From: an uncultured Acidimicrobiia bacterium
Lineage (GTDB): Bacteria > Acidobacteriota > Terriglobia > Versatilivoradales > Versatilivoraceae
NCBI GenBank assembly: GCA_963786955.1
Contig: CAWBAT010000009.1
Span: forward strand, 96,001-160,000
Direction: 5' to 3'
DNA length: 64,000 nucleotides
How positions within the stretch are numbered: position 1 is the first letter of the stretch; every line of letters begins with the position of its first letter. Below the pieces are notes generated by a model. It was not told the DNA's origin, searched no databases, and worked only from the letters and a program-made list of their open reading frames with translations. Positions 4,800 to 54,980 of the stretch are shown here, piece by piece. The position numbers and the translations under genes are program-made.

Positions 4800-6446
<1,647 letters not shown>

Positions 6447-6471
6447 TCCCCTGCCTTATCCTGCTCTTCCC

Positions 6472-6503
6472 AAAAGCCGCCTGCGCTGCAGGCGGCTTTT
6501 TTT
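6472..6503 (+). terminator. Rho-independent terminator of groESL
   Basis: AAAAGCCGCCTGC-GCT-GCAGGCGGCTTTTTTT hairpin with U tract. Confidence 0.9.
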
Positions 6504-6776
6504 GTTTTCAAAAGATGTTACGGAAGAGCGCAGGGGGTTAAAACTGGATTTTACGCTCGTCAGCCAGGATAATGCACTGATGCAAGAGACTCTCTTGAAT
6601 GACTTGGAGTCATACACATCATGGGCGCGAACAGAAAACTGGCTGGGTAATCCACCGGATCTAATTCTTGGCGAAAGGACACCCCTTGACTCATCGAGGT
6701 GCCGGACGGAAGACAATTGAGATAGTAGGTAAACCTGCCCAGTGACTTTTAGATTGTTCAATGAGGAGATACGAAA

Positions 6777-7382
6777 ATGAGGGTTCTAGTTGTCGGGGCA
6801 ACGGGCACTATCGGCCGCGCAGTTGTGGCGGCTCTTTCCCCACGGCACGAAGTGGTGCCAGTGAGCGGCCATCACAGCGCAATCACGGTCGACCTTGCAG
6901 ATTCGGGGTCGATTCGGGCCATGTATGACGCAGTCGGGATGGTGGATGCGGTGGTGAGCGCCGCAGGTCTCGCGAAGTTTGGACCACTGGATCAACTTAG
7001 CGACGACGATTTCGAATTTTCCCTCAGCAACAAACTGATGGGGCAGGTCAATCTCGTCCGCTGTGGTTTCGAGCATGTTCGAGATCGTGGCTCCTTCACT
7101 TTGACCAGCGGCGTGTTGGCGCGATTGCCTATGCCGGGCAGTGCCGCTATTAGCCTAGTCAATAGCGGAGTGGAGGGTTTTGCGAGAGCGGCGGCCCTAG
7201 AGGCGCCTCGGGGGATTCGGGTAAACGTCGTCAGCCCCCCTTGGGTGACCGAGACCCTTCAAAGCTTGGGAATGGATCCTTCGCAGGGTTTGCCAGCGGC
7301 ATCCGTCGCACGATATTATGTCGAGAGCATCGAAGGCACTCAAACAGGCGTGATCCTGGAAGCCAGCGAAATGTCACGCTGA
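6777..7382 (+). CDS. Short-chain dehydrogenase/reductase
   Basis: N-terminal GATGTIG Rossmann motif, VSAAG, IRVNVVSP; GAGGAG RBS. Confidence 0.9.
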   Translation: MRVLVVGATGTIGRAVVAALSPRHEVVPVSGHHSAITVDLADSGSIRAMYDAVGMVDAVVSAAGLAKFGPLDQLSDDDFEFSLSNKLMGQVNLVRCGFEHVRDRGSFTLTSGVLARLPMPGSAAISLVNSGVEGFARAAALEAPRGIRVNVVSPPWVTETLQSLGMDPSQGLPAASVARYYVESIEGTQTGVILEASEMSR

Positions 7383-16456: not shown

Positions 16457-16613
16457 AAGCCCATATCGCAAGGGGGACGGCGTTCCCCCTTTATAGTGGG
16501 ATTATTGTAGGGGCAAGGCATTCGATGGAGTAAGCAGCGATGAGCCTCCGTCAAGATCACGAATACTGTGCCCTTCCGGCAGGAACTGACAAAAGGTTTT
16601 GAGAACTAGGATC

Positions 16614-17531
16614 ATGCCCTCATTCGTTGAATGGATTGTCCGATTTGAAGATTATTTACGCTTAAAGAACGCCTCGGGACATACCGTGCGGAACTACGTA
16701 AGCGATCTTACGCAGTTCCAGGAATACCTAACACCACCTGGACATGAGGGAGAATCTATCTCTTGCACGATCGAAAAGCTCGATCATCATCTCATCCTTG
16801 AATATCTGGTTCATTTACACTCGCAAGAAATTGAAAACTCATCAAAATCTCGTAAAATTTCTGCCATCCGTTCATTCTGCAAGTTTCTATGCAAGGAAGG
16901 CGCGCTCGAACAAAACCCTGCAAAGTTGATCCGGCTCCCGAAAGTATCTAAGAAGATTCCCGGCTATCTTTCCGTCGACGACTGTGTTCGATTGATTGAA
17001 TCTCCAGACTTAGGCACCCCGATGGGACTTCGAGACCGTTCAATTTTAGAACTACTCTATGCCTGTGGGATTCGTGTCAGCGAGTGCGCGGGAATGAATC
17101 TGGAAGACATCAATTTCAAAGAAGACCTTATCTTGGTGAGAGGGAAAGGCAAGAAGGAAAGGGTTGTGCCATTTGGCCGCCATTGTCATGCCGCACTGGA
17201 AGCGTATTTGCAGGCTCGGCGGAGCTTCTTCAGAAACCGAATCACAGAAGAAAAGTCTCCACTCTTCTTGAGCCATGTCGGAACGCGTTTGACAACCCGC
17301 TCCATCGCTCGCATGGTGGATAAATACGTACGGACATCCGGACTAGCTCAAAAGATCAGCCCGCATGGTATTCGCCATTCGTTCGCGACCCACTTACTGA
17401 ATTCAGGGGCCGACCTCCGTTCCATTCAAGAGTTGCTTGGTCACAAAAGCTTGTCCACAACTCAAAAATATACTCATCTTTCGATCGGCCATTTGATGGA
17501 GCAGTATGACAAAGCCCACCCAAAAGCGTAG
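16614..17531 (+). CDS. xerC: Tyrosine recombinase XerC
   Basis: RDRSILELLYACGIRVSE, GKGKKER, HGIRHSFATH, LLGH...TQKYTH, KAHPKA; topA-trmFO-xerC synteny. Confidence 0.9.
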   Translation: MPSFVEWIVRFEDYLRLKNASGHTVRNYVSDLTQFQEYLTPPGHEGESISCTIEKLDHHLILEYLVHLHSQEIENSSKSRKISAIRSFCKFLCKEGALEQNPAKLIRLPKVSKKIPGYLSVDDCVRLIESPDLGTPMGLRDRSILELLYACGIRVSECAGMNLEDINFKEDLILVRGKGKKERVVPFGRHCHAALEAYLQARRSFFRNRITEEKSPLFLSHVGTRLTTRSIARMVDKYVRTSGLAQKISPHGIRHSFATHLLNSGADLRSIQELLGHKSLSTTQKYTHLSIGHLMEQYDKAHPKA

Positions 17532-38772: not shown

Positions 38773-40317
38773 TTAGTAGTTTGTGATCCTGCCGGCTGTT
38801 TCCGGGAAACTCATGCTCTCCACAAACGTTGCGTGAAAATTCTGATCGGAGGCCAGCGAGAGGTGACGACTCATCTTGCGGACCTGTTCCATAGTCGTGT
38901 TGAAGAGGGTCTTGGAGAGGAGCATCATCTTTGCGCCACGAAGTGCGGTGTTTCCGGCCGAGTGGATCTTCCCCGGACTCACCTCGAGCAGACCGATTCG
39001 GCGGGCACTCTCCCGGTTGACATAGTTCCCGAAAGCTCCTGCCAGGTGGAGTTTGTGCAGATCATTGAGCTTCTTCCCAAACTGATCCAGCAAGATCCGA
39101 AGGCCCGCCGCTATTGCGCCTTTTGCCAGCTGTAGCTCCCGGATGTCTCCCTGACTCAGGCTTACGGGAGAAAGGAGCTTCCACTCTTTCGACCCGTCGC
39201 TGAAGCGTCCGTTGCTTTGAAGGAACCCGAGATTCAACCCAGCTGCCGCGGCATCCACCAAGCCGCTCCCACAGATCCCTCGCGCGTGCCCTTCCCCGAG
39301 AACATGACAATGCAGCTTCCCGTTGCGCAGCGACACTCCGGTGATGGCCCCGGCCGAAGCCCGCATTCCCATTCGAATCCGGCCGGCCTCAAAGGCAGGT
39401 CCCGCCGCGGTCGATGCACAAATCAGACCGGAACGGTCGCCCACAACGATCTCCCCGTTAGTTCCAAGATCAGCCAGCGCGACCAATTCCGCGCTTTCGG
39501 CCATCCCCGTGGCAATGATCCCGGCCAGGACATCACTCCCCACAAAACCTCCCAGGCACGGAAGGAAACAGACTTTCGCGTCACCGCATCCAGTCCATTC
39601 GAGTTCCCGTGCCGTCAAGCGGATCAGGCCGTCGTTTTTGGGTTCAAACGGCACATGCGAGAGGGGCTCAACATCAATTCCACAAAAAAGGTGATGCATC
39701 ACCGTGTTTCCCACAATCATCACATGGCGCAGTCTTTCGGGTGAAAGGCGGGCCAGTCTGAAAGTCTCTTGGATCATTTCATGCAGACAATTGCGAATCT
39801 CGCGAGTCAACTTCCCATGGGTCACACTTCCCTCAGCGAGCGCAAACTCAATGCGGCTCATGACGTCCGCCCCGTGGGCAGCCTGAGGATTGAGTGCCGT
39901 CTGGACGGCTAAAACCTGCCCCGTAGTTAAATCGACCAACTGGGCAACCAGAGTAGTTGTCCCCAGATCGATGGCAATTCCAAGCCCTTCATCTGGTTCG
40001 AAATCAAACTGGGCATCGTCAGAGAGAATGGGAGTGTCCCACTGGGCAATCTCCAGTTCCAGCGGACCATCGACGCACCCCTGGCAAGCCAGACGCCAGC
40101 CGGCCGCGATTTCTTCTGGACTTAATATTTCTTCCATTTCCAGGGTCTTGGGGAGATTTCCTTCGAGGACACGAACGCGGCAGCCACGGCAAATACCCAC
40201 TCCGCCACAAGGAAACTCCACCCCATATTTGAATAGGATATCTTGCAGTGGAGTGCCCGGTGTGACTTCCAGACTCTCACCGAGGGGAGCTAGACGGATC
40301 TGAATCTTCTTTTGCAT
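38773..40317 (-). CDS. ASKHA-family reductive activator of corrinoid proteins (RACo/RamA-like) with N-terminal [2Fe-2S] domain
   Basis: CGGVGICRGC...RLACQ, IDLGTTT, GADVMSRI, DLGTNGE, TAAGPAFE, GICGSG, AGAFG. Confidence 0.92.
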   Translation of the reverse strand: MQKKIQIRLAPLGESLEVTPGTPLQDILFKYGVEFPCGGVGICRGCRVRVLEGNLPKTLEMEEILSPEEIAAGWRLACQGCVDGPLELEIAQWDTPILSDDAQFDFEPDEGLGIAIDLGTTTLVAQLVDLTTGQVLAVQTALNPQAAHGADVMSRIEFALAEGSVTHGKLTREIRNCLHEMIQETFRLARLSPERLRHVMIVGNTVMHHLFCGIDVEPLSHVPFEPKNDGLIRLTARELEWTGCGDAKVCFLPCLGGFVGSDVLAGIIATGMAESAELVALADLGTNGEIVVGDRSGLICASTAAGPAFEAGRIRMGMRASAGAITGVSLRNGKLHCHVLGEGHARGICGSGLVDAAAAGLNLGFLQSNGRFSDGSKEWKLLSPVSLSQGDIRELQLAKGAIAAGLRILLDQFGKKLNDLHKLHLAGAFGNYVNRESARRIGLLEVSPGKIHSAGNTALRGAKMMLLSKTLFNTTMEQVRKMSRHLSLASDQNFHATFVESMSFPETAGRITNY

Positions 40318-40422
40318 GGGTTAAGCGAGTTCAACTTTTCAGGGGCTAGCGGCAATTCAACGTCCGTCGCAGGAGAAATGGAGTAAACGTGGAAGACTGA
40401 ACAGGATATACAGACGCCGGGA

Positions 40423-41169
40423 TTACTCTTTACACTCTTCCAGCTCGATAATGTTTTCCTTATAGGAAGCCTTGATTCGGAAACCTTTGGGAACGACCAG
40501 GAAATCATTTTCCGGCCATTCCCCCGAAAGGAGCCGCTCAAACAGGCTCAAGTCTCCGCGAATTTTGTCAAATGTCCAACCCCGCTGTTTGGCTTCTTCT
40601 TGAGCCTGCTTTTCGAAATGGTCATCGGCTTCAATTCCAGTTTCGATAAACGTCAGCTGGCGGTAATGCTTCTGATATTCCGTAAATTGTTCATAGAGGA
40701 AACGCCCGTTATCTTCCCCATATTGTTCGATCAAGTCCTGCAAGTTGTAGTTGACCCCTTTCTTGGACATGACCCGATTGCTGACTTGCTCCAAATTTCC
40801 GCCTCGCTCAATCCATCCCGTCGAGCGAAAGTAGACTCCGGAATTGTTTTCGAAGTATTTCTGATAGTTTTGGCGGCTGCCCATGAGAAGAGTGATGCAA
40901 TCATGCGCTCGCGGAACAACGATCGGGAGCGTTCTGGCGGTAAGGCCTTGAATTCCATTGCCACAGAGCGCATACCCTAACAAGACGGCATCATATTGAC
41001 CCGGGTCGACCCGGTCGATCAATTCCTGCAACTTTTCCCGCATAGACTGCCCTCCCAGATCATGGAGTCCTTTGGAGCAAAACTCGACGTCAATCTGGTG
41101 TGGCGAGCGGGCCAAAGCTGCACACATCTCGCGAAAGACTACTTCACAGCTAATGAGTTTATATCGCAT
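40423..41169 (-). CDS. DUF1638 domain protein
   Basis: KLISCEV, GLH, LGYALCGNG, PRAHDCITLLMGS; typical neighbour of corrinoid activators. Confidence 0.88.
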   Translation of the reverse strand: MRYKLISCEVVFREMCAALARSPHQIDVEFCSKGLHDLGGQSMREKLQELIDRVDPGQYDAVLLGYALCGNGIQGLTARTLPIVVPRAHDCITLLMGSRQNYQKYFENNSGVYFRSTGWIERGGNLEQVSNRVMSKKGVNYNLQDLIEQYGEDNGRFLYEQFTEYQKHYRQLTFIETGIEADDHFEKQAQEEAKQRGWTFDKIRGDLSLFERLLSGEWPENDFLVVPKGFRIKASYKENIIELEECKE

Positions 41170-41451
41170 GGATGGATTCTTCCGATTTGAAATCCTACCC
41201 CCGGTGTTGAACAAAAAATTGGCCTCGCAGAGTACAACGCTCTGGGGAGGAGACCAATCATGGAGCGCCAGCCTCTACGAGGCCTATTGAACTCGAAAGC
41301 GTGCTTTCCAGACTATCTAATCTTATATAAACGCAATGATAATATTATAAATCCGGCAGGGACCCCCAAGACATCGCCGTGAAGTCTTCTCAAGACTTCA
41401 CCCTGTGGCTACCGCCATGATCCAAGGGGGACCTTTCCCAATTCCCCTGAA

Positions 41452-41560
41452 GAGATCTGAAGAAATTGTAGCGGCGCTCTATGAGCGCCGACCAAACCAT
41501 TGAATTAAAAAGAACACGGCGGTCACAGGCCGCCGCTACAGCCGATTCTTTCACACCTTC
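41452..41560. repeat. REP doublet inside imperfect terminal inverted repeats, copy 2
   Basis: Near-identical to 8812-8920; right end GATTCTTTCACACCTTC. Confidence 0.85.
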
Positions 41561-41663
41561 CCTCCTGTTAAGGGGGAAGCAAATAGATCATCGTCTCTCC
41601 TTGCACAAGGGGGGACTTCAGGGGGTGGAGAATTATTAGTAAGCAACATTTAGTGCAACTGCT

Positions 41664-42293
41664 TTAGTTTGTCATGAAACTACGCGCAAGATTCACGGCC
41701 GATGCAGCATTTTCGCCATACCCATCCGCACCAATCTGGTCAGCAAAGTTTTGAGTGATGGGAGCACCGCCAATCAGGACTTTCACGCGATCTCGCACCC
41801 CAGCCTGCTTCAGGGCGTCGATCGTGGACTTCATGGAAGGCATTGTGACGGTCAAAAGTGCGGAAAGGCAAATCAAATTCGGATTCTGTTCTTTGACAAC
41901 TTCCACGAATTTCTCGGGAGCGACATCGGTGCCCAGATCGATCACCTCAAAACCTCCCCCTTCGAGCATGGAAGCTACCAGGTTTTTGCCGATGTCGTGC
42001 AAGTCGCCCTTCACGGTCCCGATCACCACCCGTCCCACCGGCTTGGAGCCTTGCGCTGCCAATCGGGGTCGAAGGATTTGCAAACATCCCTTCATAGCCC
42101 GCGCAGAAATCAACATTTCCGGAACAAAATACTCTTCACATTCGAATCGCTTTCCCACTTCAGCCATGGCCGGAATCATGAACTTCTGCACCAAGTCTAG
42201 GGGATCTGCATTCTCGGCAAGGGCCTTTTCAGTCGCGGCAATCGCTCTCTTTGCGTCTCCATCAATAATTGCATCGTAAACTTCTTTGGACAT
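41664..42293 (-). CDS. Corrinoid (B12-binding) methyl-carrier protein
   Basis: FVPEM cap domain, GTVKGDLHDIGKNLV (DxHxxG), LSALLT, IGGAP. Confidence 0.95.
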   Translation of the reverse strand: MSKEVYDAIIDGDAKRAIAATEKALAENADPLDLVQKFMIPAMAEVGKRFECEEYFVPEMLISARAMKGCLQILRPRLAAQGSKPVGRVVIGTVKGDLHDIGKNLVASMLEGGGFEVIDLGTDVAPEKFVEVVKEQNPNLICLSALLTVTMPSMKSTIDALKQAGVRDRVKVLIGGAPITQNFADQIGADGYGENAASAVNLARSFMTN

Positions 42294-42432
42294 TATTGCC
42301 TCCTCTTCGATTCACTCAAGTGTTGACTGACGCCACTGCCCAAGAACAGATGGCCGACAATCGAATACGCAAACCCACAAAAAATCCCGGAGGGCTTCGA
42401 AGGATTCTACTTCAGCTTGGCCTCCGGGCTCT

Positions 42433-43692
42433 TCAATTTCTACCTCCAAATTCCTGAATGGCATTCAGCATCGCGACGATGTTTTCAACCGGTGTTCGGG
42501 CCTGGATATTGTGAATGGTATTAAAAATAAATCCGCCGTCTTTAGAAAACACACGGCATCGCTCTAGAACCTGATCACGAACTTCAGTTGGGGTCCCAAA
42601 AGGGAGCACCTTCTGCGTATCAACACCTCCACCCCAAAAGACAATCCGGTCGCCAAATTCTGCTTTGAGATTCTCCGCCGCCATGCCTGTTGCAGAACAC
42701 TGAACAGGATTGAGAATATCAAACCCGGCTTCAATCATGGACGGGATAAATCTTATCACGGACCCGCAGGAATGTTTGAAGGTTTTCCAGGTTGTGTTTT
42801 TGTGGATCCAGTCATTGACCCGTTTGTAGTATGGAAAATATAAATCACGAAAGGTGTCGACGGAACAAAAACTAGAGGTTTGCGTCCCAAAGTCAGTTCC
42901 GCAAATAAAAAGGACGTCGATCTTGTTTCCCACGATCGGAAAAATCTTTTCCAGATTTGCGATGGCGTAATCACATTGTTTGGAAAAGACCGTATGAATG
43001 TAATCCTGCCGGGTGCGGGTCGATACGTACCATTCGGCGATGTCCCGGATGCCCTTGGGATGCTTGAGAAAAGGGGCTGGGACTAAGGCAATATCGCCGA
43101 ACCCCGTCCCCCCAAAAGTCGCAACTACGGCTCGATTTGTGCCTTCCAGCTCTGCGATCGAACGTCGAAGGTATTCCAGGTCCTTCTCGGTGATCGGTCC
43201 GAATTCCTCTAAGTTGTCTTCAGGATCGAGTTTATCTTCATCAAATGGTTCTTGCCTGACAATGCTATCAAAGAAATAACCGTCCTTCGGCATCCGGCCG
43301 CTTGGCGGCGCAGAAGTATCCCCTTCGGGATAAATCAGGATGTCACCTTTTTCGTCCGTCGTGGTCCGAAAATCCTTGGAAACCAAAACCTCAAGACCTT
43401 GCGGCGTCTTCCACGGTCTCCAATCGTAATTCGCAAACCCGAAAATCGTCTTTACCGGATAGACCGCGTCCGTATCAATACCCATGACATTCTTCAAATC
43501 ATCTTCAACCAATCCCAGCATCTGATAGGGTTCGTGAACCTTCACGGCGTGTTCGTCCAGCCCGTAATATTTGCGAAGCTCAGAGACGCAGCTGACATGG
43601 ATTCCCGTCGTCAACGTGCTTCCAAAATCTATCGGTATGCGGTCAGGCGCTCGATGGGACAAGCTGGCAACGACACGCTCTTTACTGTTCAT
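42433..43692 (-). CDS. Uroporphyrinogen decarboxylase-fold methyltransferase (MtaA/CmuA-like)
   Basis: MNSKERV...PDRIPID, FKHSCG, NPVQCSA, FWGGGVDTQ, HNIQ. Confidence 0.88.
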   Translation of the reverse strand: MNSKERVVASLSHRAPDRIPIDFGSTLTTGIHVSCVSELRKYYGLDEHAVKVHEPYQMLGLVEDDLKNVMGIDTDAVYPVKTIFGFANYDWRPWKTPQGLEVLVSKDFRTTTDEKGDILIYPEGDTSAPPSGRMPKDGYFFDSIVRQEPFDEDKLDPEDNLEEFGPITEKDLEYLRRSIAELEGTNRAVVATFGGTGFGDIALVPAPFLKHPKGIRDIAEWYVSTRTRQDYIHTVFSKQCDYAIANLEKIFPIVGNKIDVLFICGTDFGTQTSSFCSVDTFRDLYFPYYKRVNDWIHKNTTWKTFKHSCGSVIRFIPSMIEAGFDILNPVQCSATGMAAENLKAEFGDRIVFWGGGVDTQKVLPFGTPTEVRDQVLERCRVFSKDGGFIFNTIHNIQARTPVENIVAMLNAIQEFGGRN

Positions 43693-44127
43693 GACTTCAT
43701 CCTCGGAGAATGATTCAAAACGAAGTCATTTACGAACCAATCTGCCGGATAGAAATGATTTGTTGAATGTTCCCGAAATCAAGACCTATGCATACTCCAA
43801 CCTGTTGAAAAATTGCACATGAGCTTCCAAAGCTACGGCTGGGCTCCATAATTTTATCTTCTTATTATTCAACTGTTTAAGTCATTAGACGCCGAGAGAC
43901 AAAGAAAACAACTGCGTCATTTCACGCTCTAGTGAGTGGTATCGAGCACCTTGCATGAATGAAACTCGAACGATACCTCTCCTGGTATTGAGTGGGCCAC
44001 TCCTTTGGGATCGAGCTCTGCGAGACCGGAATCCCCGACAGGCCAAGAGGCCTGTCGCTACCAATCGGCGTCGCTAAGCTCCGCCCTCCAACCAAATTCT
44101 GAGGTTGAGGGATGAAAACTGGAATTT

Positions 44128-45432
44128 CTACGGCTTTACTAATGACCCATCGATTTGTCGGACATTCATCCAGCCGGGCTCTGTTGGTGGATACGGTATT
44201 GGATACTTTTTGGCCATTTCTTCGTCAAGATCGATCCCAAGCCCTGGCTTATCGTTACCGTAGAGATAACCTCCTTTGATCTCTGCCGTGCCCGGCATCA
44301 TTTCATAGACCAATGGGGGAAAATGGTTTTCCTCCTGGATGCCAAAACTGGGAATGTTCATATCGATATGATAGGCGGCTAACTGGTTTACGGGGTCATT
44401 GTCTCCCCCTTCCTGCCAGGCTGTGCGAACTCCAAATGCTTCGCAAAGAGTCGCCACTTTTTTGGTAGGTGTGATTCCACCGATGGCTGAGACCCGGCAC
44501 CGAATGAAATCAATCAATCGTTCAGAGATGAGGGTGGTCCATTCCATTGGATGCGTAAATAACTCACCCATCGCCATTGGGGTGGTAGTCACTTTGCGAA
44601 TCAGTCGGAACCATTCGATCTGTTCCGGAGGCAGAATGTCTTCCACAAAAAACAATCGATAGGGCTCCATTTGTTTCGCAAACTCTCTGGCCACGGTCGG
44701 AGTCAGATGTTCATGAACATCGTGGAGCAATTTGACATCCCACCCCAGTTGAGTCCGAAGATGCGCGAACAATTTGGGGATTGTCTCCAGGTAAATGTCC
44801 TCGTCAAAGCCGGGTCCGGCGTAACCACCGGCGACACGACTGCCCATCCCTTCGGGCACAAATCCACCGCCGCCATAGCCCCCCATCTGGGCGCGAACAT
44901 GGCGATAGCCTTCCGCCATATACTTTCGAACATTGTCCTCCACTTCTTTGGGATCGCGACCGTCTGCATGCGCGTAGCACGGAACGGCATCACGCACTTT
45001 TCCTCCAAGGAGTTCGTACACAGGCATCCCGGCTCTCTTGCCTTTGATATCCCACAAAGCCATATCGAGCCCGCTCAAGACATTGTTCGTCACGGCGCTG
45101 TTCCGCCAAATCGAATGGACGTTCGTTTCCTGCCACAGTTCTTCAATGCTATCCACCCTTTTTCCAATCCAAAAAGGCGCCATATGCTTTCGAATGGATT
45201 CGACCACGGCAAAGGCCTGGTAGGCATGGCTCGCGGAACCGATGCCATAAAGCCCCGGCTCGCTGGTAATGATTTTGACGAAGATCCAGGGATAAAGTTT
45301 TCCAGGGCTAGTTGTCACGACTCGCACTTCTTTGATGAGCAAGGGAGGTAAACCGCGTGTCCGCTCAGCATAAAGTTCAGCCGCCGCCAGCGGCATAGCC
45401 AGTAGTCCTTTCAAAAGCTCTCGTCGCTGCAT
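44128..45432 (-). CDS. Enolase-superfamily acid-sugar dehydratase (ManD/RspA-like) with Tat signal
   Basis: MQRRELLK after GGAGG; DMALWDIKGK, LLHDVHE, FFVED, GELF, IQE. Confidence 0.88.
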   Translation of the reverse strand: MQRRELLKGLLAMPLAAAELYAERTRGLPPLLIKEVRVVTTSPGKLYPWIFVKIITSEPGLYGIGSASHAYQAFAVVESIRKHMAPFWIGKRVDSIEELWQETNVHSIWRNSAVTNNVLSGLDMALWDIKGKRAGMPVYELLGGKVRDAVPCYAHADGRDPKEVEDNVRKYMAEGYRHVRAQMGGYGGGGFVPEGMGSRVAGGYAGPGFDEDIYLETIPKLFAHLRTQLGWDVKLLHDVHEHLTPTVAREFAKQMEPYRLFFVEDILPPEQIEWFRLIRKVTTTPMAMGELFTHPMEWTTLISERLIDFIRCRVSAIGGITPTKKVATLCEAFGVRTAWQEGGDNDPVNQLAAYHIDMNIPSFGIQEENHFPPLVYEMMPGTAEIKGGYLYGNDKPGLGIDLDEEMAKKYPIPYPPTEPGWMNVRQIDGSLVKP

Positions 45433-45595
45433 GGAACCTCCTTTGCTTGTTGGTGCGACTGAAAAATTCAATAGCCAGTAAACTATCGCCCAGCAGCTGT
45501 ATCGCGGACCCTGTTTCTTGGTGTCCACGGCTTATCTTAGGGTAGAATCGCCGTGGGTTCTCCAAGTGATTCTGATGGACAACTCTGGGTATTGA

Positions 45596-48500: not shown

Positions 48501-49078
48501 ATCCTGATCTTCCCCAGGCCCGTGCCGCGCTTGCCCGATTCCTGCCAGACGTTCTGAATCCGGATCCGAACCGATTTCGCTTTTTCTTCCTGCGGGAGCA
48601 GGATGATATGGAAGTAAGAAGCCTGGTGAAGTTCTGCGTCACCTTGAGCCCCGCCGGAAAGTGAATAGGTAATCCGATGAGGCGTTGCCATGAGGCCCCC
48701 TCGCATATAAGGATCGAGCACAATGTCATAAGGGAGTGGGCGGGGCAGCAGCCAGATTTCGCGCACCGGACGGGGTTCGTCAAAACTAACCTCGAGCCAC
48801 GCTCCATCTGACTCTGTGTCAGTCTCCCAACTTGTCTGAAGAATATCTCCGAAGACATTGCTGGGTTCAAATCCCCAGGGCGGGTTCCCCACAAAGGACG
48901 AGGTCTTTACCGAAGCGCCTAGTTTAGGATCGGCCCAATTTAAGTCTTCTACTAGGGTCGCCTTCTCGCCTTCAGCAGCCAGAAGTCTGCTTCCCGTTTG
49001 CCAGTTATTGAGGCTCTTCCCCACTGTCCATGAAATCGCGGCGGCTCCGCCGGTTTCCAAAAACTTTCTGCGATCCAT
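45596..49078 (-). CDS. Glycoside hydrolase family 38-like protein with Tat signal
   Basis: MDRRKFL after GAGGAGG; HNDLGW, LVRQF, PDHG, VFNP...R, ENEFL, TAMKKSEE...RFYE, EIVT. Confidence 0.82.
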   Translation of the reverse strand: MDRRKFLETGGAAAISWTVGKSLNNWQTGSRLLAAEGEKATLVEDLNWADPKLGASVKTSSFVGNPPWGFEPSNVFGDILQTSWETDTESDGAWLEVSFDEPRPVREIWLLPRPLPYDIVLDPYMRGGLMATPHRITYSLSGGAQGDAELHQASYFHIILLPQEEKAKSVRIRIQNVWQESGKRGTGLGKIRIFPYAHVSDFDLTVFEMYEVHDGKPVQSATLEFVNPGGDIPDGRLQVFRQGQVLATIALNNIPAQSVTNHDMWIPALFEDETLEFRFISQAVQKTRRLKVAAYRSYFEKGTFNFLCTNHNDLGWLDTQAITADYRSAELILPAMALLQEYPDFRYSMESVVYLREFLERHPEKKEEMAQLMRERRFTWGASYVQCQEVHVGPEKLVRQFYLGRRWLKKNFPGADSIYYFKTDPPSMTIQMPQILRKAGVKYVIQGRFPWGFYNWEGLDGTQVFVFAFRYADPKKLLNPKKNKGWLGLAALREDYYAPRRLPPIFIYDFNGDYLPPPTDLIPYVHKQNESMNNFAALWNSYYAGKPQQQINPPKLRFVEPTEILDEVSTQDLNIETVKGEWPLNWVYYDEPANREALLAGRQGHNRVLTAERLLSGLGLAEGWDSYPQEALAEVWQANCWPDHGWGGNRGILTDAVYAESYQKSRQLADKVLAEAGSKVVRSVSRQENTSKQWPLVVFNPVSWTRTDVVRMRFEKPSGWPSFLLRDEGGREVPFQLTQSTDTKSADVLFVADAVPSVGYRTFYLESSLAPLPPEEQRSGNILENEFLRLVLGAGGLKSLYDKTLKQEILRTEKFFGGEILQFTAPGLAWDDVENVTMEDFDKTSNHPVSQWTLLRGPVRTRAVGVSQFKHFQLRQSFDLYSRLNRVDIGIEVLNWDGQKERELRIAFPMASEMNRFSYEAPFGVVEMGKDEADFSLLPLSPDTQWRKDVYGGDKPLPFREAINWIDASSSSYQGFGCLLPSDCTVHLFRDETANPVQYPVLQHVLLSTRKSIAWNPEYWFKVEGNHRYQMALLPHRGNWRLRYREGIEFNYPLIAFLGAAGSGSAGGSLPHTAEFLKLSPSNLILTAMKKSEEEQDVVIRFYEAEGRQSLAKVVLFKAIKKAWKTNLIEEEPEALPVKSDGSLELKVAAWEIVTIKLAV

Positions 49079-49544
49079 AAGTGCAGTCCCTCCTCGCATC
49101 AATCTCCACTCAAGAATACGAAGTACAGATGAAATCTCAAAGGAACTCCTCGTCACATCCTTTGAATTAATCGCCTGGTGAAGATAAACTTCCTGCCTGC
49201 CATGGTATCAACGAGGGCTTTAAGCCCATTACAGAAACAAATGATACGCCGTGGCCCGTTCTACCCAACGATGCATTGTGAGTCGCTTTGGCAGCATTTA
49301 GAGAACTGGCTCCATCCGAAAATGTGCGTGGAACTGCATTGTGAATCTGCGTCCTAAAGTGCAATCCGTGTTTTCCGAGTCAGATAAGCTGTAAGGTCTG
49401 ATTAAGACAAGGATAAAAAATGGAGAGGCCCAAACCAACCGACGTTCACCGGAAGTTAAAAGAGTGGATGAGGCCCTGGATTGATAAAGAGCCCAGACCA
49501 CTTCCGGATGGAAGTTTCTGAAGACGGCCACCCTGGGTACACCT

Positions 49545-50060
49545 TCATCGAAGGCCGATACGCGCGTCAATAAGTGTTTTCTGTTTTTTGCGAGCCGGCA
49601 AAAGGGAAAGTCTTCTAAGCAAGTCATTTTCTTTCTTGATGGCGGGAGAGCGCAATAAGGAAAGTAATAATAGCTCGAGCAATTCTTGAACTTTCTTGTC
49701 ACTGAACTGGATGAGGAAGTTGGAGAGCTGCATGAGCCGGATTTGCCTTGCCGAGTACCCCTCCACGTGAAACTTTTGTCCTTTGCGCCCTGTCCCGTAG
49801 ATAAGATCCGCCACACACCGTCCACTCAAGCTCACTGGACATTGTCCCTGAAAACGCTTCTGTTCATCATAGCCAAAAAAGTCAACCAGATTGACTTGGA
49901 GAGCCTCAGCGATCTTGTGGAGAGTAGTGAATGAGGGTTCAATGCGGTTATTCTCAATCCTGGACAAATAAGTAACAGCCAGCCCGCTTTTGCGGGATAT
50001 CTCTAGCTGTGTCAGATTCCTGGATTGTCGGATTTCACAAATTCGATTGCCTAAGCTCAT
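49545..50060 (-). CDS. XRE-family HTH transcriptional regulator with a two-Cys C-terminal region
   Basis: AGGAG RBS; MSLGNRICEIR...TQLEIS...YLSRIENNRIEPSFTTLHKIAEAL; then CPVSLSGRC. Confidence 0.9.
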   Translation of the reverse strand: MSLGNRICEIRQSRNLTQLEISRKSGLAVTYLSRIENNRIEPSFTTLHKIAEALQVNLVDFFGYDEQKRFQGQCPVSLSGRCVADLIYGTGRKGQKFHVEGYSARQIRLMQLSNFLIQFSDKKVQELLELLLLSLLRSPAIKKENDLLRRLSLLPARKKQKTLIDARIGLR

Positions 50061-50121
50061 GAAACTCTCCTGTAATACACGGGGGCATGGCACGGCATTC
50101 GATCGAATGCGTGTCCCCTAC

Positions 50122-51197
50122 TTAGATGAGGTGAATCGGAGAACGCTTGGCTGTAGAGCGCTTCAGGTGCAGTTGGTCAAAATAGGCTAGTGAGATGATC
50201 AGCAGGTGATGATGAAATAGGCTCTGTAGCGCGATCCAGCTGTTCTGCAATTGCTCTTTATCCGGAAGAACTTGGAGTAACGTGGCTATCAAACTCTTTT
50301 CATAAAGGTGCACGGCATGAAGTATCAGAGAAAAGGGAACCTCAGCGGTCGCTAAATTGCGGCCCGCATCCGTCACCATCTGGTCATATTTATCCAGGCG
50401 CCCATCCTCGAAGGCAAAGATCGGGGTGTTATCCCAAGAGCTTCAATCGGTTTGCGGATCGAGTCGGTATATCTTCCACCAAATTCCGACACTTGATCAA
50501 GCCAGCGCATTTGCATTTCTGCCAGATGGGGTCTAAGAGGCTGGAGAGCTAGAGCGATCGCCTCTTTCTCCCCAACTGAAAACCCGCTCATGATATTCTC
50601 GTGTGAAATTGGCAAATCAATGGCCCCAAAGTCCTGCTGGACCGGGCCGACCTCCAAGGTGTCGATTTTGGCTGACTCCCAGAGAATTTCAATATCCGGA
50701 ATTCTGCGCCGCGAAGAGCTCGCCTGCCCTTCTTTCAAGTAGGAGATCGGATCCTCCAGGTGGCGAATGATCGGCACGATGTCCACGGGTTGGCCGGCCA
50801 CTAAGTCTTTGACCAGTTGAACGCCCATGGAAGCCGCGAGGCGGCCTGTCAAAAAATCCTTCGCCTCATAGTGAATAATATAGATACTGCCGTCGGGATC
50901 AGCCTCTGACTTCCTCCTCGTCCATCCCCGATAAACACGTCGAGCGCGATCTGCCAAGTGCTCTAGTTCAAGCAGAACATGCTCAAGAACATGAGCAAAG
51001 TCTGTCCCTTTTCGCATTTCTTTGACGAACCCGCCGTCCTCACCAGCTATACACCGATGCGACATCAGACTCGGGATTAATTGAATCAGTCTCTCAATGA
51101 AGCTCGGGAGGTCCTTGGTGGTCAAAGAGGCAAGATTCCCGACGTCCACTTCCACTTCGTAAATGGAAATGCGGGAGTTGACGATTTGGAGCGTCAT
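50122..51197 (-). pseudogene. Cyanophycin synthetase N-domain-like peptidase fused to a globin-like domain, split by a -1 frameshift near 50435
   Basis: PSLMSHRC...GGFV...GTDFAHVLEHVLLEL...GWTR matches the CphA N-domain. Adding one base joins ORF 50373-51197 to the frame of 50122-50379, giving about 358 aa. Confidence 0.7.
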
Positions 51198-51210
51198 GAA
51201 TGTCTGAAGG

Positions 51211-51627
51211 TGACGTCTTCTTCCCTGTAAATGATTGATGCGCTTTCAAAAGACTCGAAAGCGGTTATGTTGAATCCCTACAATCTAGAAACCCGGGGAG
51301 TTGAAACCAATTGAGGGGGACTAGTTCAGCGCCTCGCAACAACTTCTTTCTCTAAAGGCTGCAGATTAAAGAGTATCCTTCCGAATCTTCTCAGCCAGAA
51401 CGGCGAGATAGTCCTTGACCAGCAAACGGGCATCCTCAATGTCAAATGGCTTGCCTTTCGCTCTCTCCAGAGTCTTGGTGATCATTGGATCAGACCACAG
51501 GTAGGGATTGTTCAAAAGGCCGATGAACGACTCCTTGGTGTGTTCAAACACCGGTTTGAAATACTCAGGGATTGTAACCATGATCTCTTCCTCCTGTTTC
51601 TAAACGCTGCCAGGGAAGAAGACGTCA
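51211..51627. repeat. Perfect 17-bp long-range inverted repeat
   Basis: TGACGTCTTCTTCCCTG at 51211-51227 and its exact reverse complement CAGGGAAGAAGACGTCA at 51611-51627. Confidence 0.92.
51366..51581 (-). CDS. Small hypothetical protein (71 aa)
   Basis: AGGAGG 8 nt before ATG, protein-like composition, lies between the inverted repeat arms. Confidence 0.75.
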   Translation of the reverse strand: MVTIPEYFKPVFEHTKESFIGLLNNPYLWSDPMITKTLERAKGKPFDIEDARLLVKDYLAVLAEKIRKDTL

Positions 51628-51849
51628 TTCAAATTCTTTAATAACAATTCCGATCCAACTTCATCTATCTGTCAAGGGGAATTGCACTCTTTTTAAATAT
51701 TAACATATGTGTAAAGACCTCATCTTAGGGCGCCCCCTCCCGCAATAGAGGGATTCAGGGGTTTACCCCCTTTTTTTTGCCTTGCTGGTGAAATACGTTT
51801 TAAGTATTGTGCTGTTATTCTGAAAAGATTCCTTGTGGAGAAATAGAAG

Positions 51850-52722
51850 ATGAAGACATCAGCAAAAACGTGGAACACAAATTGGCTCTTTTCTCACGAC
51901 TTCGCCTGGCGGCGCTGCATTGGCAACGCAAGCTTTATTGTGGGAGTCATTTCTCTGGCTATTCTCGTATCCCCGATAATGCCCCTGAACACTAACGCTG
52001 GGACAGGGAAGACAAAACTCAAGCTCGAGCCTGGATTTAAGTCGCTTTTCGACGGGAAAGATCTCAAGGGATGGCACAAGAATCCAACTAAAATCCATCA
52101 TGGGACCGGAGGGCTGTGGACCGTTGAAGATGGAGCGATTCTCGGCCAACAGGATCCTCCGGGCAGCGGAAACGGAGGGATACTGCTAACAAATAAAAAG
52201 TATGGAAACTTTGAAGTCATCTTTGAGGTCAACCCCACCTGGGGAATGGATTCTGGATTTTTCTTGCGCAGTACCGAGATGGGGCAGTGCTACCAAATTA
52301 TGGTGGATTACTACGCAAACGGAAACGTAGGAGAGATTTACCGTGAAAGACTGGACGGGATGACCAACCGCACCTTCATGCTCGAAGGAGTCTTTGCTGA
52401 TGAATTGAAAACCCTGATTGGAGTGAACGCGATCCCAGCTCCTAAGAACGACAAAGGTCAAGGGGGGCCACCCTTTATCAAGCTTGCAGACTGGCCTCAC
52501 ATTTGGAAAGTCAACGAATGGAACACGGTTCGCGCTCGGGTCGAAGGGAACCCGCCAAACATCGTCACCTATATCAACGGGACACTCATCACCAAATACA
52601 CCAGCGAAAAGATGTTCGAAGGGATCCTGGAAGACCGCGGCTACCTGGCATTACAAGTTCATGGAGGAGATCCAGGCAAAAAACAGGTTCGATATCGCAA
52701 TATTCGAATCAAGGAACTTTAG
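51850..52722 (+). CDS. DUF1080 family secreted protein
   Basis: SLFDGKDLKGW, DSGFFLR, YQI, NEWN, LQVHGG, YRNIRIKEL. Confidence 0.88.
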   Translation: MKTSAKTWNTNWLFSHDFAWRRCIGNASFIVGVISLAILVSPIMPLNTNAGTGKTKLKLEPGFKSLFDGKDLKGWHKNPTKIHHGTGGLWTVEDGAILGQQDPPGSGNGGILLTNKKYGNFEVIFEVNPTWGMDSGFFLRSTEMGQCYQIMVDYYANGNVGEIYRERLDGMTNRTFMLEGVFADELKTLIGVNAIPAPKNDKGQGGPPFIKLADWPHIWKVNEWNTVRARVEGNPPNIVTYINGTLITKYTSEKMFEGILEDRGYLALQVHGGDPGKKQVRYRNIRIKEL

Positions 52723-52762
52723 CCGGGAGTGCGAGCATCTTCCCCGCCATGGCACACAGGAA

Positions 52763-54980
52763 TTATCGTGCATTCCAAGAGGATCCCCACGGAATCCTGG
52801 GACCAATCTTCGTCGCGTCGATTGGCACGAAGCCGAGCTTGAATGCCGGGGAATCTGTTTTCAAACGATAATCATCTTTGGCCATACCTAAAAAGAGCGG
52901 GTCGCCGATTACAGAATCCTTGTCATAACCTTGCTTCTGCCACTCAACGAGTGAGGAGCTCTTCACCAGATTTGAAACGTCGCGGGTGTATTGAATCATG
53001 TATTTCCCGTTTTCTTTCTGAAAGTAGAGATTCCCTTCCGATTTCAACAAAGTGCGATCGGTCCACCCGGAATCGAGACTATAGAGGACTGCCGAAGGGT
53101 CATCCTGATAGAAAATGTTGTGGGTAAGATAGTTTCCCGTCATGAAACCTTCCATCGCCTTGTAGAAACCTTTTCCTTGGACAAGCGTGACCAGGTCCTG
53201 AAAGCGCACGTTGGTCCGGCAATCCACAAGAACATTATTTTCAATCAAATTGTTTTTTCCCGCATGCACCAGGACACCCGTCTGAGCGCGCGCAACGAAT
53301 GTTTCCATGTATCAGGCAGTTACTCGAGTAGTTATCCAGATAAATTGCGCTGCTGAATCCCAACTCTTTCCCCACTTTCCCGTTGGCCGCTTGGAAGCTA
53401 AAGGTATCCAGAATCATGTTGTACCGGATGACATGTCCATCTCTCTCCGCATCCTTCTTAGCGATTTCCTCCATCCACATATTGATTGCGGCAGTATCGG
53501 CAATCTCCAGGCAGGCATAACGAATTAAGTTGTATTCCACGAAGTTCCGCCCTGACGGGTTATTCCCCAGGTTGACCGCATGATGGGGAACAAATTCAAT
53601 TCGGTTATGACTAATGATGTTGCCATCACTCATCCCGGCGAAAATTCCAGCCACATATTTGTTCAATACCCCAACATGGTGGATGAAATTGTCAGAAATT
53701 TCGTTGAACAGAGGATGCATCAATTTTGAGCCGAGCAGGCAGATACCATCGGCACCAGGATAACTGATCTCATTCTCGCGGACCACATTGCGATAGTTGT
53801 GGCCCTCCAGATAGATCGCATTGCATCCGACAGCGTCAAAATGGTTGCGCTGAATCGTACAATTCTGGGCTCCCTTCATGTGCAAGGCATCGCCACCATA
53901 CTGCAGGCCCGGCCGAGGAAACATCGGTCCGGTACCCTCCACCCCTTCGTGTTGATAGTTGTCACCGTCTTTCGTCTCGGTAAAGGTGAATCCAGAGAAT
54001 CGCAGCCACGAAGCTCCTTGAATATCTACCAGGCAATCCAGCGCCGGGACCACGATTTGGTCGGACGCTTTCAAATTCCCGGCTGGAGGCCAGAAATAGA
54101 GCAGTCCATCTTCCGAGTCCAGGCACCACTCCCCTGGCTGATCCAACTCTTCCAGCATGTTTTCCAGGAAGAAGGCGTTCCCGGGGGAAAACGGAACCGG
54201 GGGATAATACCAGGGTGCCAAGTCAAACTGCATTCCCGGTCGGACAAGTGTAATCGAATCGTCTTGTTCATTGACCGACAAGATTGGAACAGTACTCCTC
54301 CAGGAACCCCACCCACCTTGGTAAAAATTCACTTCCCCCTCACTCGGCTTGGTCCAATGATGCGGAAAACTGCCTGTCTTATATTTAAAAGTCGTACTGC
54401 TCAGTTTTTCAGGGGGTCCTTCTACGAAGCCCCAGCCTCCATACATAGGGTCACTGGGGTCAAGGTTGGGAGTCCTCGCCCGGATCTGCCGCAGGCCATT
54501 CAAGAAGAGTTGACGCGACTTCCATTTTCCCCCTCTGGCACCCGGCAATGTTGCCTGAAGAATTTTTCCCTGGTAGGACTTCCACCCCGTAACTTTTCGC
54601 CCACCGCTGAGAATTGGCTTCTCCCCTGGGTAGGCTTGATAAATGGTCGGGAACTCTCTGGTTCCTGAATCTTCGGCTGTAAATACGATTGTCCGGTCCA
54701 GATAATATTTGCCGCCCCGGACCATTACGGTAACTGATTCCTTGAAACCTTGTTCCGATTTGAGCTTGCGGATGACATCGCGGGCCCTTTCCAGGGTAGC
54801 AAAAGGACCATCACTATCGGCTGCGTTCGGCACTTCAAGTGTTCCGGACCAGCGGTCATTGCCATTGGGGGCTACGTACCACGTCACCGCCAAAGCTGGC
54901 GCGGCCTTCGCGGTGATAAGACTTATCAAACAAAAAAAGGGTGTTAAGAATGTGTGGATCAGTTTAGCGCGATTCAACAA
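52763..54980 (-). pseudogene. Secreted right-handed parallel beta-helix protein, split by a +1 frameshift near 53298
   Basis: YVAPNGND...DGPFATLERA, LDQPGEW, IYLDNYSS. NCLIHGNI joins VARAQTGVLVH...DPLF...DSPAFKLGF if one base is removed. Confidence 0.85.

Follow-up and report, generated by a model that had tools for sequence, protein, structure and literature searches.

A perfect inverted repeat that brackets a small gene may well represent the two halves of a long-range RNA duplex, formed within one minus-strand mRNA and controlling translation of both the small gene and the gene that follows it; our confidence in this reading, the best explanation we have, is evenly balanced. The repeat lies in a window of 64 kb (the whole stretch of DNA analysed) at 51211-51227 (TGACGTCTTCTTCCCTG) and 51611-51627, where the first-pass annotation had placed it, with arms that are 17 nt long, 100% complementary and separated by 383 nt. 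Three inverted repeats were found in the whole window (seed 11; length 14 nt or more; arms no more than 1500 apart), and this one is the sole perfect case. When 200 windows were simulated with a first-order Markov model, the longest perfect inverted repeat (spacer 20-1000 nt) reached 17 nt in one of them and at least 16 nt in two, so that chance seldom gives such a repeat. Even when up to 3 mismatches are allowed, the window has no copy of the 17-mer besides the two arms (0.29 expected; two or more copies in 3 of 100 shuffles), and both arms are kept in the two orthologous loci available for comparison, L001 and L002; neither a dispersed repeat in the 64-kb window nor a loss of the repeat in these loci, two observations named beforehand as refuting the first-pass readings, was seen.

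Read on the minus strand, the 5' arm (A, 51611..51627, UGACGUCUUCUUCCCUG) falls in the presumed 5' UTR of the small gene, with its 3' end 29 nt before the ATG, and is pyrimidine-rich and anti-Shine-Dalgarno-like. The 3' arm (C, 51211..51227, minus strand, CAGGGAAGAAGACGUCA) is intercistronic and purine-rich and mimics the ribosome-binding site of the small gene; it has no functional Shine-Dalgarno role of its own, since its end is 13 nt from the downstream ATG and its purine run more than 20 nt away. The ribosome-binding site that C resembles, site B (51580..51596, minus strand, CAGGAGGAAGAGAUCAU), includes GGAGGAAG at 51587-51594 and is the alternative, local partner of A. The first-pass annotation overlooked that the small gene's own Shine-Dalgarno sequence has its anti-Shine-Dalgarno counterpart in arm A. 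Each arm contains the palindrome GACGTC, and the 17-mer as a whole has neither dyad nor direct-repeat symmetry. Rfam 15 gave 0 matches at E<=1 on both strands of 49000-53000.

The small gene (51366..51581, minus strand) encodes 71 aa and lies wholly between the arms; the open reading frame and its strong ribosome-binding site were found as first annotated, and the energy of the duplex with the anti-Shine-Dalgarno sequence is -10.3 kcal/mol, against -1.5 for the downstream gene. The protein is a member of a genuine family, with 9 close relatives and, at E<=0.001, 30 representative clusters, and 18 synonymous and 8 non-synonymous codon differences separate the window from L002. The family is unassigned, with no match in Pfam or NCBIfam and no Atlas lead, and the model, a soluble helical protein (pLDDT 80), gave 0 Foldseek matches against the PDB at E<=0.001 among 37 at E<=10. 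Long multi-stretch matches to the small-protein profile (P0022, P0028, P0036 and P0044), which had scattered Pfam matches and no significant stretch, were set aside. The protein has a GRAVY of -0.23, a highest 19-residue hydropathy of 0.58, and 11 basic and 11 acidic residues; identity as a hok-like type I toxin was excluded by the low hydropathy and the modelled soluble helices.

The downstream gene is split by a frameshift, a 1-nt deletion near 50424/50425, into a first piece of 274 aa (50373..51197, minus strand) and a second piece of 85 aa (50122..50379, minus strand), where relatives have 358 aa. No Shine-Dalgarno sequence is present in the last 25 bases upstream of it. It had first been called a peptidase, a name that Pfam does not sustain, since the only domain given is PF18921, the cyanophycin synthase-like N-terminal domain (E 2.5e-25, in the first piece). 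A full-length cyanophycin synthetase with ATP-grasp and Mur-ligase-like domains was rejected, as the N domain only is present and TIGR02068 reaches 92.5 bits where 850 is the cut-off. The rest of the protein model resembles sensor globins, the second piece holding the rest of this globin-like C-terminal domain, and on the model the product is a putative CphA-N-like plus globin-like sensor protein. Complex prediction for the small protein with the downstream protein gave a median score of 0.37 (runs 0.37, 0.00 and 0.38) and a best control of 0.00; agreement between runs is at least 0% of contacts, with a partner pLDDT of at least 58. Of 80 solved complexes 58 come up to the score mark, as do 2 of 110 mismatched pairs, counts that are only roughly valid here because own alignments were used, and among those reaching it 7 of the 80 solved complexes and both passing mismatches score 0.60 or lower. 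Support for binding between the two proteins is weak, and no claim is based on it. The window and L001 share an XRE-type helix-turn-helix gene, placed two genes downstream, that L002 lacks.

Conservation was compared over three loci, the window, L001 and L002, the last being more distant, with a downstream protein 69% identical to that of the window. Between the window and L002 the arms are identical at 33 of 34 positions, against 93 of 186 (about 50%) summed over four flanking non-coding stretches, a contrast read as selection on the arms. Arm C is identical in all 17 positions in both orthologous loci, and arm A in 17 of 17 in L001 and 16 of 17 in L002. The sole change, C to U, gives U-G with C and U-G with B on the sense RNA and A-C on the antisense strand; neither sense-strand helix is predicted to suffer from the substitution. 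L001 and L002 also share the placement, with 13 nt between the arm and the ATG for the downstream gene and 29-30 nt for the small gene, and the 17-mer is found twice only in each of these 12.8-kb loci. Over the three sequences all 51 of 51 cells of the A:C helix are paired, with 16 of 17 pairs invariant and one C-G changed to U-G, and so are all 44 of 44 cells of A:B, where 14 of 15 pairs never vary. Double-sided covariation was found for neither A:C nor A:B in these three sequences, and arm invariance of this kind would be equally expected of protein-binding DNA sites. On a fourth contig, an ORF called too long reads LQGRRR through arm C. Comparable over-long calls for distant relatives of the small protein (P0024 and others) contained no arm-like sequence and were uninformative.

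Independently of the two arm helices, the RNAalifold consensus contained 15 pairs with double-sided changes outside A:C and A:B, including a nested helix AAUCCCUA / UAGGGAUU that joins the coding region of the small gene to the intercistronic region, where L002 is poorly aligned. Given this poor alignment, and since an 8-bp match is expected by chance, the nested helix is not claimed as covarying.

Folding of the leader and of the growing transcript was predicted in all three loci. The leader alone forms a hairpin of -17 to -19 kcal/mol in which arm A pairs onto site B, including the AUG of the small gene, and the Shine-Dalgarno sequence of the small gene is paired with a probability of 0.99-1.0 in 3/3 loci. 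With the upstream part shuffled, mean Shine-Dalgarno pairing fell to 0.53-0.54, and the observed value was reached by 0, 1 and 0 of 300 shuffles. As the transcript grows, Shine-Dalgarno pairing stays at 0.96-1.0 up to 20 nt before C and is 0.61-0.73 with C included, the residual pairing being with weaker partners. The A:C duplex has an energy of -33.6 to -42.3 kcal/mol over the three loci and an arm pair probability of 0.90-1.0 in transcripts of about 500 nt, and to keep C unpaired by force costs 13.9-20.4 kcal/mol. Taken whole, the 531-nt region has no exceptional stability (z = -1.39; equally good or better folds in 10 of 100 shuffles). A hairpin just upstream of the 3' arm (51241..51263, minus strand, CGCUUUCGA-GUCUU-UUGAAAGCG) is present in all folds; L002 has a shorter hairpin of other sequence at this position.

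Similarity to L002 sets in abruptly 43 nt upstream of A, at a block (51647..51675, minus strand) of TTGACA (51670-51675) followed by AAGTTGGATCGGAAT (51647-51661), which is identical at 24 of 29 positions against 28 of 89 further upstream. This fits a promoter at the TTGACA block, with A lying within the transcript. A sigma-70 consensus scan gave no match on the minus strand upstream of the 5' arm and no internal promoter, and inspection of the upstream region by eye for sigma-54, ECF and extended -10 patterns found none conserved. A palindrome of 14 nt was also noted near 51700-51714, 86% in L001; it is absent in L002, was not found by the repeat search in the window, and was judged too weak for an operator.

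We infer one minus-strand mRNA, started upstream of A and folding in the cell much as computed, that would carry the 71-aa gene and the downstream sensor-like gene, with A in the leader facing two partners. While the RNA is short, A would pair with the Shine-Dalgarno sequence and start codon of the small gene at site B, and this anti-Shine-Dalgarno hairpin would block translation of the small gene. Once C has been transcribed, 400 nt on and 13 nt before the next start, it would displace B, pairing with A by about 14-20 kcal/mol better; C is the better partner because it copies site B yet is perfectly complementary to A. The A:C pairing would free the ribosome-binding site of the small gene and tie the 5' end of the mRNA to the region before the second gene. 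Translation of the small protein would then be delayed or conditional, the region upstream of the second gene would be moderately masked, and the long duplex could also be a substrate for RNase III or shield the 5' end. In predictions at equilibrium A:C always wins, so that no trigger for a switch is evident and the model rests on the order of folding; and as the helix ends at -14 of a gene lacking a Shine-Dalgarno sequence, its effect on that gene may be small. Distant complementary segments, competition for the Shine-Dalgarno region and complementarity kept in orthologues, the marks of a long-range mRNA duplex, are all found here, on a transcript that the two arms presumably share.

The version favoured in the first-pass annotation was that the helix chiefly represses the downstream gene, the leader folding back over its initiation region. 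The general preference expressed there for an RNA fold-back over DNA inversion agrees with the arm conservation, the G-U pair kept on the sense strand and the pair probability of the arms. As to the target of the fold-back, the 3' arm does occupy -30 to -14 of the downstream ATG in 3/3 loci, the predicted pairing of the -20 to -1 region does rise, modestly, from 0.28-0.47 without the 5' arm to 0.59-0.75 with it, and the fold can reach the AUG in the window and L001; long isoforms of Bacillus subtilis mRNAs provide a precedent (PMC8208050). The extension of the helix that had been described also exists in the minimum-free-energy fold of the window, where GAAUUUGAA (51628..51636, minus strand) pairs with UUCAGACAUUC (51198..51208, minus strand, directly before the downstream ATG) to give 9 extra pairs with two 2-nt bulges, ending one base before the ATG at 51197. 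However, pairing at least as good was obtained in 479 (window), 185 (L001) and 819 (L002) of 1000 shuffles, the register differs between the loci, the stretch that holds the 5' half is only 9/19 identical to L002, and so are just 8/13 of the nucleotides between the 3' arm and the ATG. The start-codon extension was accordingly rejected as part of the element, being neither above shuffles in any locus nor conserved, and in 3/3 loci 13 nt separate the end of the conserved helix from the ATG. There is moreover no Shine-Dalgarno sequence in the downstream gene to be hidden, its AUG in the window is paired similarly with the 5' arm (0.61) and without it (0.60-0.62), and why A should also match the small-gene ribosome-binding site is left unexplained. 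Repression of the downstream gene as the chief function is consequently held to be rather unlikely, and support for sequestration of its initiation region is weak.

The duplex could also act chiefly as a processing stalk for RNase III, by a likeness to the stems that flank rRNA, excising the small cistron and giving the two genes different stabilities. The 17 perfect pairs, or 26-35 nt together with flanking partial pairing, come into the length range of double-stranded RNA substrates, and cleavage would remove A and so free the ribosome-binding site of the small gene for good, which makes this proposal compatible with translational control by the A/B/C elements. The duplex between the 5' and 3' UTRs of icaR mRNA is indeed cut by RNase III (PMC3868564). 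Here, cleavage is putative and drawn by analogy, and only the 17 bp are conserved and not the flanks, so a primary role in processing is thought doubtful.

At the DNA level, the arms could be two binding sites for a regulator in opposite orientation, 400 bp apart, with looping between them controlling the promoter region. Both 17-mers are invariant without covariation, as binding sites are, each has the GACGTC palindrome, and the window and L001 have the helix-turn-helix gene close by. Against this, L002 keeps both arms without such a neighbour, the arm spacing is 400, 400 and 394 bp over the three loci, a 6-bp difference that amounts to half a helical turn, the 17-mer as a whole lacks symmetry of either kind, and both sites would lie downstream of the candidate promoter. 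Looping also gives no account of the complementarity between A and the ribosome-binding site or of the transition that keeps a wobble pair, and we consider it improbable.

A functionless relic, left by a local duplication or template switch or by the ends of a miniature mobile element, might be suspected since site B and arm C resemble diverged copies of one sequence. Such a relic is very improbable, as the arms are far better conserved than the neighbouring non-coding DNA, the 17-mer has just two copies in the window and in each 12.8-kb locus, no target-site duplication lies beside the arms, whose flanks are not direct repeats, and no match was found in plasmid or phage collections. Hardly credible is the other possibility raised in the first-pass annotation, that the 17-mers are recombination sites at which the small gene is flipped: 17-bp inverted repeats around 383 bp are the geometry sought by inverton finders, and the plus strand of the segment carries two weak promoter-like matches, but such matches are about as frequent as chance predicts (3, with 1.8 +/- 1.3 expected), all 3 assembled loci agree in the orientation of the segment, the only recombinase among 47 window ORFs scanned against Pfam is XerC/D-like (16599-17531, in the context of dprA, topA and trmFO) and 34 kb away, none was found among 9 ORFs scanned next to the gene pair in L001 and L002, and a complete gene lies inside, with a ribosome-binding site that pairs with an arm, which points to RNA.

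Translational control by competition for the leader arm has several relatives among known systems. Riboswitch and RNA thermometer platforms share its three-element logic of a ribosome-binding site, a masking sequence and a third sequence that competes for the mask. Unlike these, the present locus has no recognisable aptamer or sensor domain, in line with the empty Rfam search, and unlike in compact riboswitch leaders the competitor is 400 nt away, past a whole cistron. In phage MS2 RNA and the rpmI-rplT operon of E. coli, how far a downstream cistron is translated depends on pairing over hundreds of nucleotides within the polycistronic RNA, and ribosomes on the upstream cistron melt the helix. 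Here, in contrast, neither arm is within a coding region, so translation cannot directly open the helix.

The closest comparison is with icaR of Staphylococcus aureus, in which pairing of the 5' and 3' UTRs over a complementary region of 40 nt blocks initiation and makes a substrate for RNase III (PMC3868564). As in that mRNA, the leader pairs with a region several hundred nucleotides downstream, past the coding sequence, and the partners are a pyrimidine-rich, anti-Shine-Dalgarno-like and a purine-rich sequence; the icaR authors also propose that the 5' UTR refolds stepwise after transcription of the distal element (PMC3868564). The polarity differs. The distal element of icaR is the anti-Shine-Dalgarno sequence, which closes the ribosome-binding site (OFF) and creates the RNase III site (PMC3868564), whereas the present leader carries the anti-Shine-Dalgarno sequence itself and the distal mimic of the ribosome-binding site is predicted to open the site (ON). 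The distal element here also fronts a second cistron, unlike the terminal 3' UTR described for icaR. A precedent for action over such a distance comes from anti-Shine-Dalgarno-like 8-mers, which act in vivo on a ribosome-binding site from 467 nt away (PMC12697547).

In Bacillus subtilis, long-range stems repress translation of sigma-A-dependent long isoforms such as those of ctc and yvrE (PMC8208050). As here, a sequence upstream in the operon pairs before an internal gene, and the paired region spans the end of the upstream gene and the intercistronic region (PMC8208050). In the isoforms as described there, the downstream Shine-Dalgarno sequence is deep in the stem and is freed by an internal promoter in the loop (PMC8208050), in contrast to our locus, where the downstream gene is without a Shine-Dalgarno sequence and an internal promoter was not found by the consensus scan. 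In hok mRNA (hok/Sok of plasmid R1; tac/fbi), a 5' element likewise chooses between a local, co-transcriptional partner and a distal 3' partner, and the choice decides whether the Shine-Dalgarno sequence is sequestered (PMC9841398). There, long-range pairing locks the mRNA OFF, trimming of the 3' end activates it, and an antisense RNA takes part (PMC9841398). The small protein of the present locus is no Hok-like membrane toxin, and an antisense gene comparable to that of the hok system is not evident.

A further step, which we regard as speculative and not very likely, is a toggle that spans the cistron, in which the small protein is made only from transcripts that reach the sensor gene and each mRNA translates one cistron or the other. 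A ribosome or factor at the start of the sensor gene would release the anti-Shine-Dalgarno arm, and the small gene would be shut off again. If true, the ratio of the sensor to its small partner would be fixed at the level of the RNA, and RNase III would possibly make the choice permanent.

The general principle of such control is known; its place in this locus is new. The practical weight is modest, given a narrow element (three loci), a known general principle and computed evidence. If the translational model holds, the locus would provide a natural anti-Shine-Dalgarno leader relieved by a decoy beyond a whole coding sequence, mirroring icaR and resembling, in simpler form, the hok fold-back, and would be a compact, portable device to time or balance two cistrons. 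It would also add to the recent evidence of pairing over hundreds of nucleotides in bacterial gene expression. For the family itself, an unstudied conserved gene pair, encoding a 71-aa helical protein and a CphA-N-like/globin-like putative sensor, comes into view as a unit with apparently controlled dosage.

The first-pass annotation had described a perfect 17-bp inverted repeat, and this was confirmed with arms at 51611-51627 (the 5' arm of the minus-strand transcript) and 51211-51227 (the 3' arm), separated by 383 bp. As had also been stated, the arms enclose one small ORF with a strong ribosome-binding site, GGAGGAAG (51366-51581, minus strand, 71 aa). A scan of all 64 kb, with a minimum length of 14 nt and a maximum arm distance of 1500 nt, yielded three inverted repeats, of which this was the sole perfect one. 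No third copy of the 17-mer was present in the 64-kb window with 3 mismatches allowed, and the arms were not dispersed repeats within the window and orthologous loci, a possibility which had been named as counting against the element. Given this uniqueness, and since the longest perfect inverted repeat (spacer 20-1000 nt) reached 17 bp in only 1 of 200 first-order Markov versions of the window, the repeat is real and unlikely to have arisen by chance. A 23-nt inverted repeat of 78% complementarity within a histidine-kinase gene (9817-9839/10189-10211) is probably fortuitous.

Two orthologous loci, L001 and L002, were obtained from one scan of genome contigs, with downstream proteins 85% and 69% identical to that of the window, respectively. 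In each, a divergent DUF1080 gene precedes the small gene, which is followed by the 358-aa gene, and both keep the repeat, the loss of which would have spoken against it. In L001 it is a perfect 17 bp and, when extended, 35 nt at 80% complementarity; in L002 a single base of the 17 bp is altered, from C to U in the 5' arm. The arms of L002 match those of the window at 33/34 positions, and the flanking non-coding DNA at 93/186, summed over four stretches (9/19, 8/16, 68/138 and 8/13). In all three loci 13 nt lie between the 3' arm and the downstream ATG, and 29-30 nt between the 5' arm and the small-gene ATG. A fourth contig, that of the relative P0013, was seen only through an over-extended ORF call, which reads LQGRRR across the 3' arm like the window and L001 but continues with R where these have H; the simplest reading of this sequence would be an A-to-G change at the last 3' arm position.

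Three points favour the arms acting as RNA on the sense (minus) strand. The C-to-U change of L002 turns a C-G pair into a U-G wobble on the sense transcript, and on the antisense strand would leave A opposite C, a mismatch. In the leader alone the 5' arm has a second, local partner: UCUUCUUCC.UG pairs with CAGGAGGAAGA, which belongs to the Shine-Dalgarno region of the small gene, and at that gene's start codon AUGA pairs with UCAU. The 3' arm thus looks like the ribosome-binding site of the small gene, yet matches the 5' arm perfectly. Across the three loci this leader hairpin has an energy of -16.8 to -19.1 kcal/mol, its helix with the Shine-Dalgarno region is paired in 44/44 cells, and the L002 change is again a wobble. 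The Shine-Dalgarno octamer was predicted to be paired in the leader with a probability of 0.99-1.0, compared to a mean of 0.53-0.54 when the upstream part was shuffled, the observed value being reached by 0, 1 and 0 of 300 shuffles.

As the third point, the two arms were predicted to pair with each other in ~500-nt transcripts (probability 0.90-1.0; duplexes of -33.6 to -42.3 kcal/mol). When the 3' arm was barred from pairing, at a cost of 20.4, 19.7 and 13.9 kcal/mol, the 5' arm returned to the Shine-Dalgarno sequence. For transcripts truncated at different points, predicted pairing of the small gene's Shine-Dalgarno sequence was 0.96-1.0 up to 20 nt before the 3' arm, and fell to 0.61-0.73 once the 3' arm was included. 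The region as a whole was not unusually stable in folding. Intercistronic UAGGGAUU (about 51267-51282) is complementary to AAUCCCUA (about 51480-51495) in the small gene's coding region on the minus strand; both are invariant in the three loci though the intercistronic surroundings have diverged, and they may form a second helix nested inside the first.

The arms could instead be paired protein-binding sites in DNA. The compensatory changes sought in the orthologous loci did not appear as double-sided covariation, since 16/17 pairs between the arms and 14/15 between the 5' arm and the Shine-Dalgarno region are invariant among the three sequences and a C-G to U-G wobble is the one change; conservation alone thus does not separate an RNA helix from such sites. 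However, L002 keeps the arms while lacking the XRE-type helix-turn-helix gene found further downstream of the pair (minus strand) in the window, the arm spacing differs by 6 bp, and the match to the ribosome-binding site is left unexplained. A GH38 gene, which lies there as well in the window, is also absent from L002. The alternative proposal, that the 17-mers are recombination sites of an invertible segment flipping the small gene, was not borne out, as the only recombinase among 47 Pfam-scanned window ORFs is an XerC/D-like gene (16599-17531) 34 kb away in a dprA-topA-trmFO context, and segment orientation is the same in 3/3 assembled loci. The region has no match among the plasmids or phages searched.

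The helix had also been proposed to sequester the downstream initiation region through an extension reaching the ATG at 51197. Shine-Dalgarno sequences are in use in this genome: of 37 ORF starts (46 ORFs minus 10 without Pfam support, plus the small gene; starts being those of the longest ORFs), 9 bind a canonical anti-Shine-Dalgarno string at -8 kcal/mol or better. The small gene scored -10.3, and the downstream gene, at -1.5, was one of the 7 weakest. The conserved helix spans -30 to -14 of the downstream gene, and predicted pairing of -20 to -1 rose from 0.28-0.47 without the 5' arm to 0.59-0.75 with it, but pairing of the AUG in the window was hardly altered. The extension did form in the minimum-free-energy fold of the window, over the last 11 bases before the ATG, but shuffles were equal or better in 479, 185 and 819 of 1000 cases and the register differs in each locus. 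The downstream start may therefore be masked, to a modest degree, and this masking does not make up the element's conserved core.

The downstream gene itself is not the peptidase it had been taken for. ORF 50373-51197 (minus strand) carries PF18921, the cyanophycin synthetase N-terminal domain, and scores far under the cut-offs for the enzyme itself. Its relatives are 358 aa long, including the intact, 98%-identical P0010; the window copy is broken near 50424/50425, where ACACC-CCG lacks 1 nt present in L001 and L002, with the remainder in ORF 50122-50379 (minus strand) beyond the frameshift. The break may stem from a sequencing error in a homopolymer, or the gene may be a recent pseudogene. 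A GH141/beta-helix-like gene is likewise split into two minus-strand ORFs in different frames (52763-53308 and 53241-54980, 68-nt overlap), possibly a second frameshift, which would point to an error-prone assembly. The downstream start codon is secure: relatives begin at the same methionine, except P0013 (over-extended N-terminus) and P0017 (three residues upstream). The model of P0011, the 358-aa L001 protein (6001-7077; pLDDT 76.5), matched CphA1 N domains at E ~2e-6. Its C-terminal half, a globin-like helical domain, gave weaker matches to sensor globins (E ~0.03), with target TM-scores reaching 0.72, the value for AfGcHK. This pairing of modelled domains looks like an undescribed sensor architecture; a receiver domain is present in three more distant relatives.

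The small ORF is a genuine gene despite having no match in Pfam or NCBIfam. Nine relatives share 65-99% identity; when 1.84 billion representatives were searched with a profile, 30 matched at E<=0.001, mostly of 63-98 aa; and codon differences from L002 are 18 synonymous and 8 non-synonymous. The protein was modelled as soluble and helical (pLDDT 80), with no fold match in the PDB. Complex prediction with the downstream protein scored 0.37 (best control 0.00), weakly suggesting contact at most. The minus-strand region 38773-45528, downstream of the pair in the window, contains an enolase-superfamily gene plus a corrinoid methyltransferase set (URO-D-like, B12-binding, DUF1638 and, in the window, a RACo activator). 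The first four of these genes directly follow the pair in L002 (7112-11869), and the pair may be part of the regulation of this pathway. Upstream, 80 nt or so before the start (51850) of the divergent DUF1080 gene (3-keto-disaccharide hydrolase family), a plus-strand terminator-like hairpin with a T8 run (51757-51781), partly conserved in L001, stands where no plus-strand gene ends, and might act as an attenuator or terminate an antisense RNA.

Conservation with L002 starts abruptly at a TTGACA-containing block (51647-51675). A sigma-70 consensus scan gave no promoter match on the minus strand upstream of the 5' arm. An invariant 15-mer, AAGTTGGATCGGAAT (51647-51661, minus strand), follows TTGACA; if transcribed, its AUCGGAAU can base-pair with the variable stretch immediately 5' of the arm, by eye in 6, 7 and 8 of 8 positions in the window, L001 and L002, a G to C change in L002 gaining a pair. 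We infer the transcription start, co-transcription, folding in vivo and all functional effects as follows. A single mRNA would begin upstream of the 5' arm, and during transcription its leader would fold into an anti-Shine-Dalgarno hairpin, keeping the small gene silent. The 3' arm, made 400 nt later, would displace the ribosome-binding site from the 5' arm and open the small gene to translation, while the mRNA 5' end would become locked in a long helix beside the second gene's start, possibly as an RNase III substrate. Since the long helix always wins at equilibrium, regulated switching would have to depend on kinetics or on a trans-acting factor.

The logic is that of anti-Shine-Dalgarno/anti-anti-Shine-Dalgarno switches, here stretched over a whole cistron. 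Related published cases are the icaR 5'-3' UTR pairing, of polarity opposite to this locus (PMC3868564), the hok tac/fbi fold-back with its metastable nascent hairpin (PMC9841398) and long isoforms of B. subtilis (PMC8208050), and anti-Shine-Dalgarno-like 8-mers pair in vivo with a ribosome-binding site 467 nt off (PMC12697547). In sum, the repeat is a genuine and conserved cis element, and its likeliest form is a long-range helix in the mRNA that has an anti-Shine-Dalgarno hairpin as its alternative. It is an element of known type, found here in a so far uncharacterised module of two genes from uncultured bacteria.
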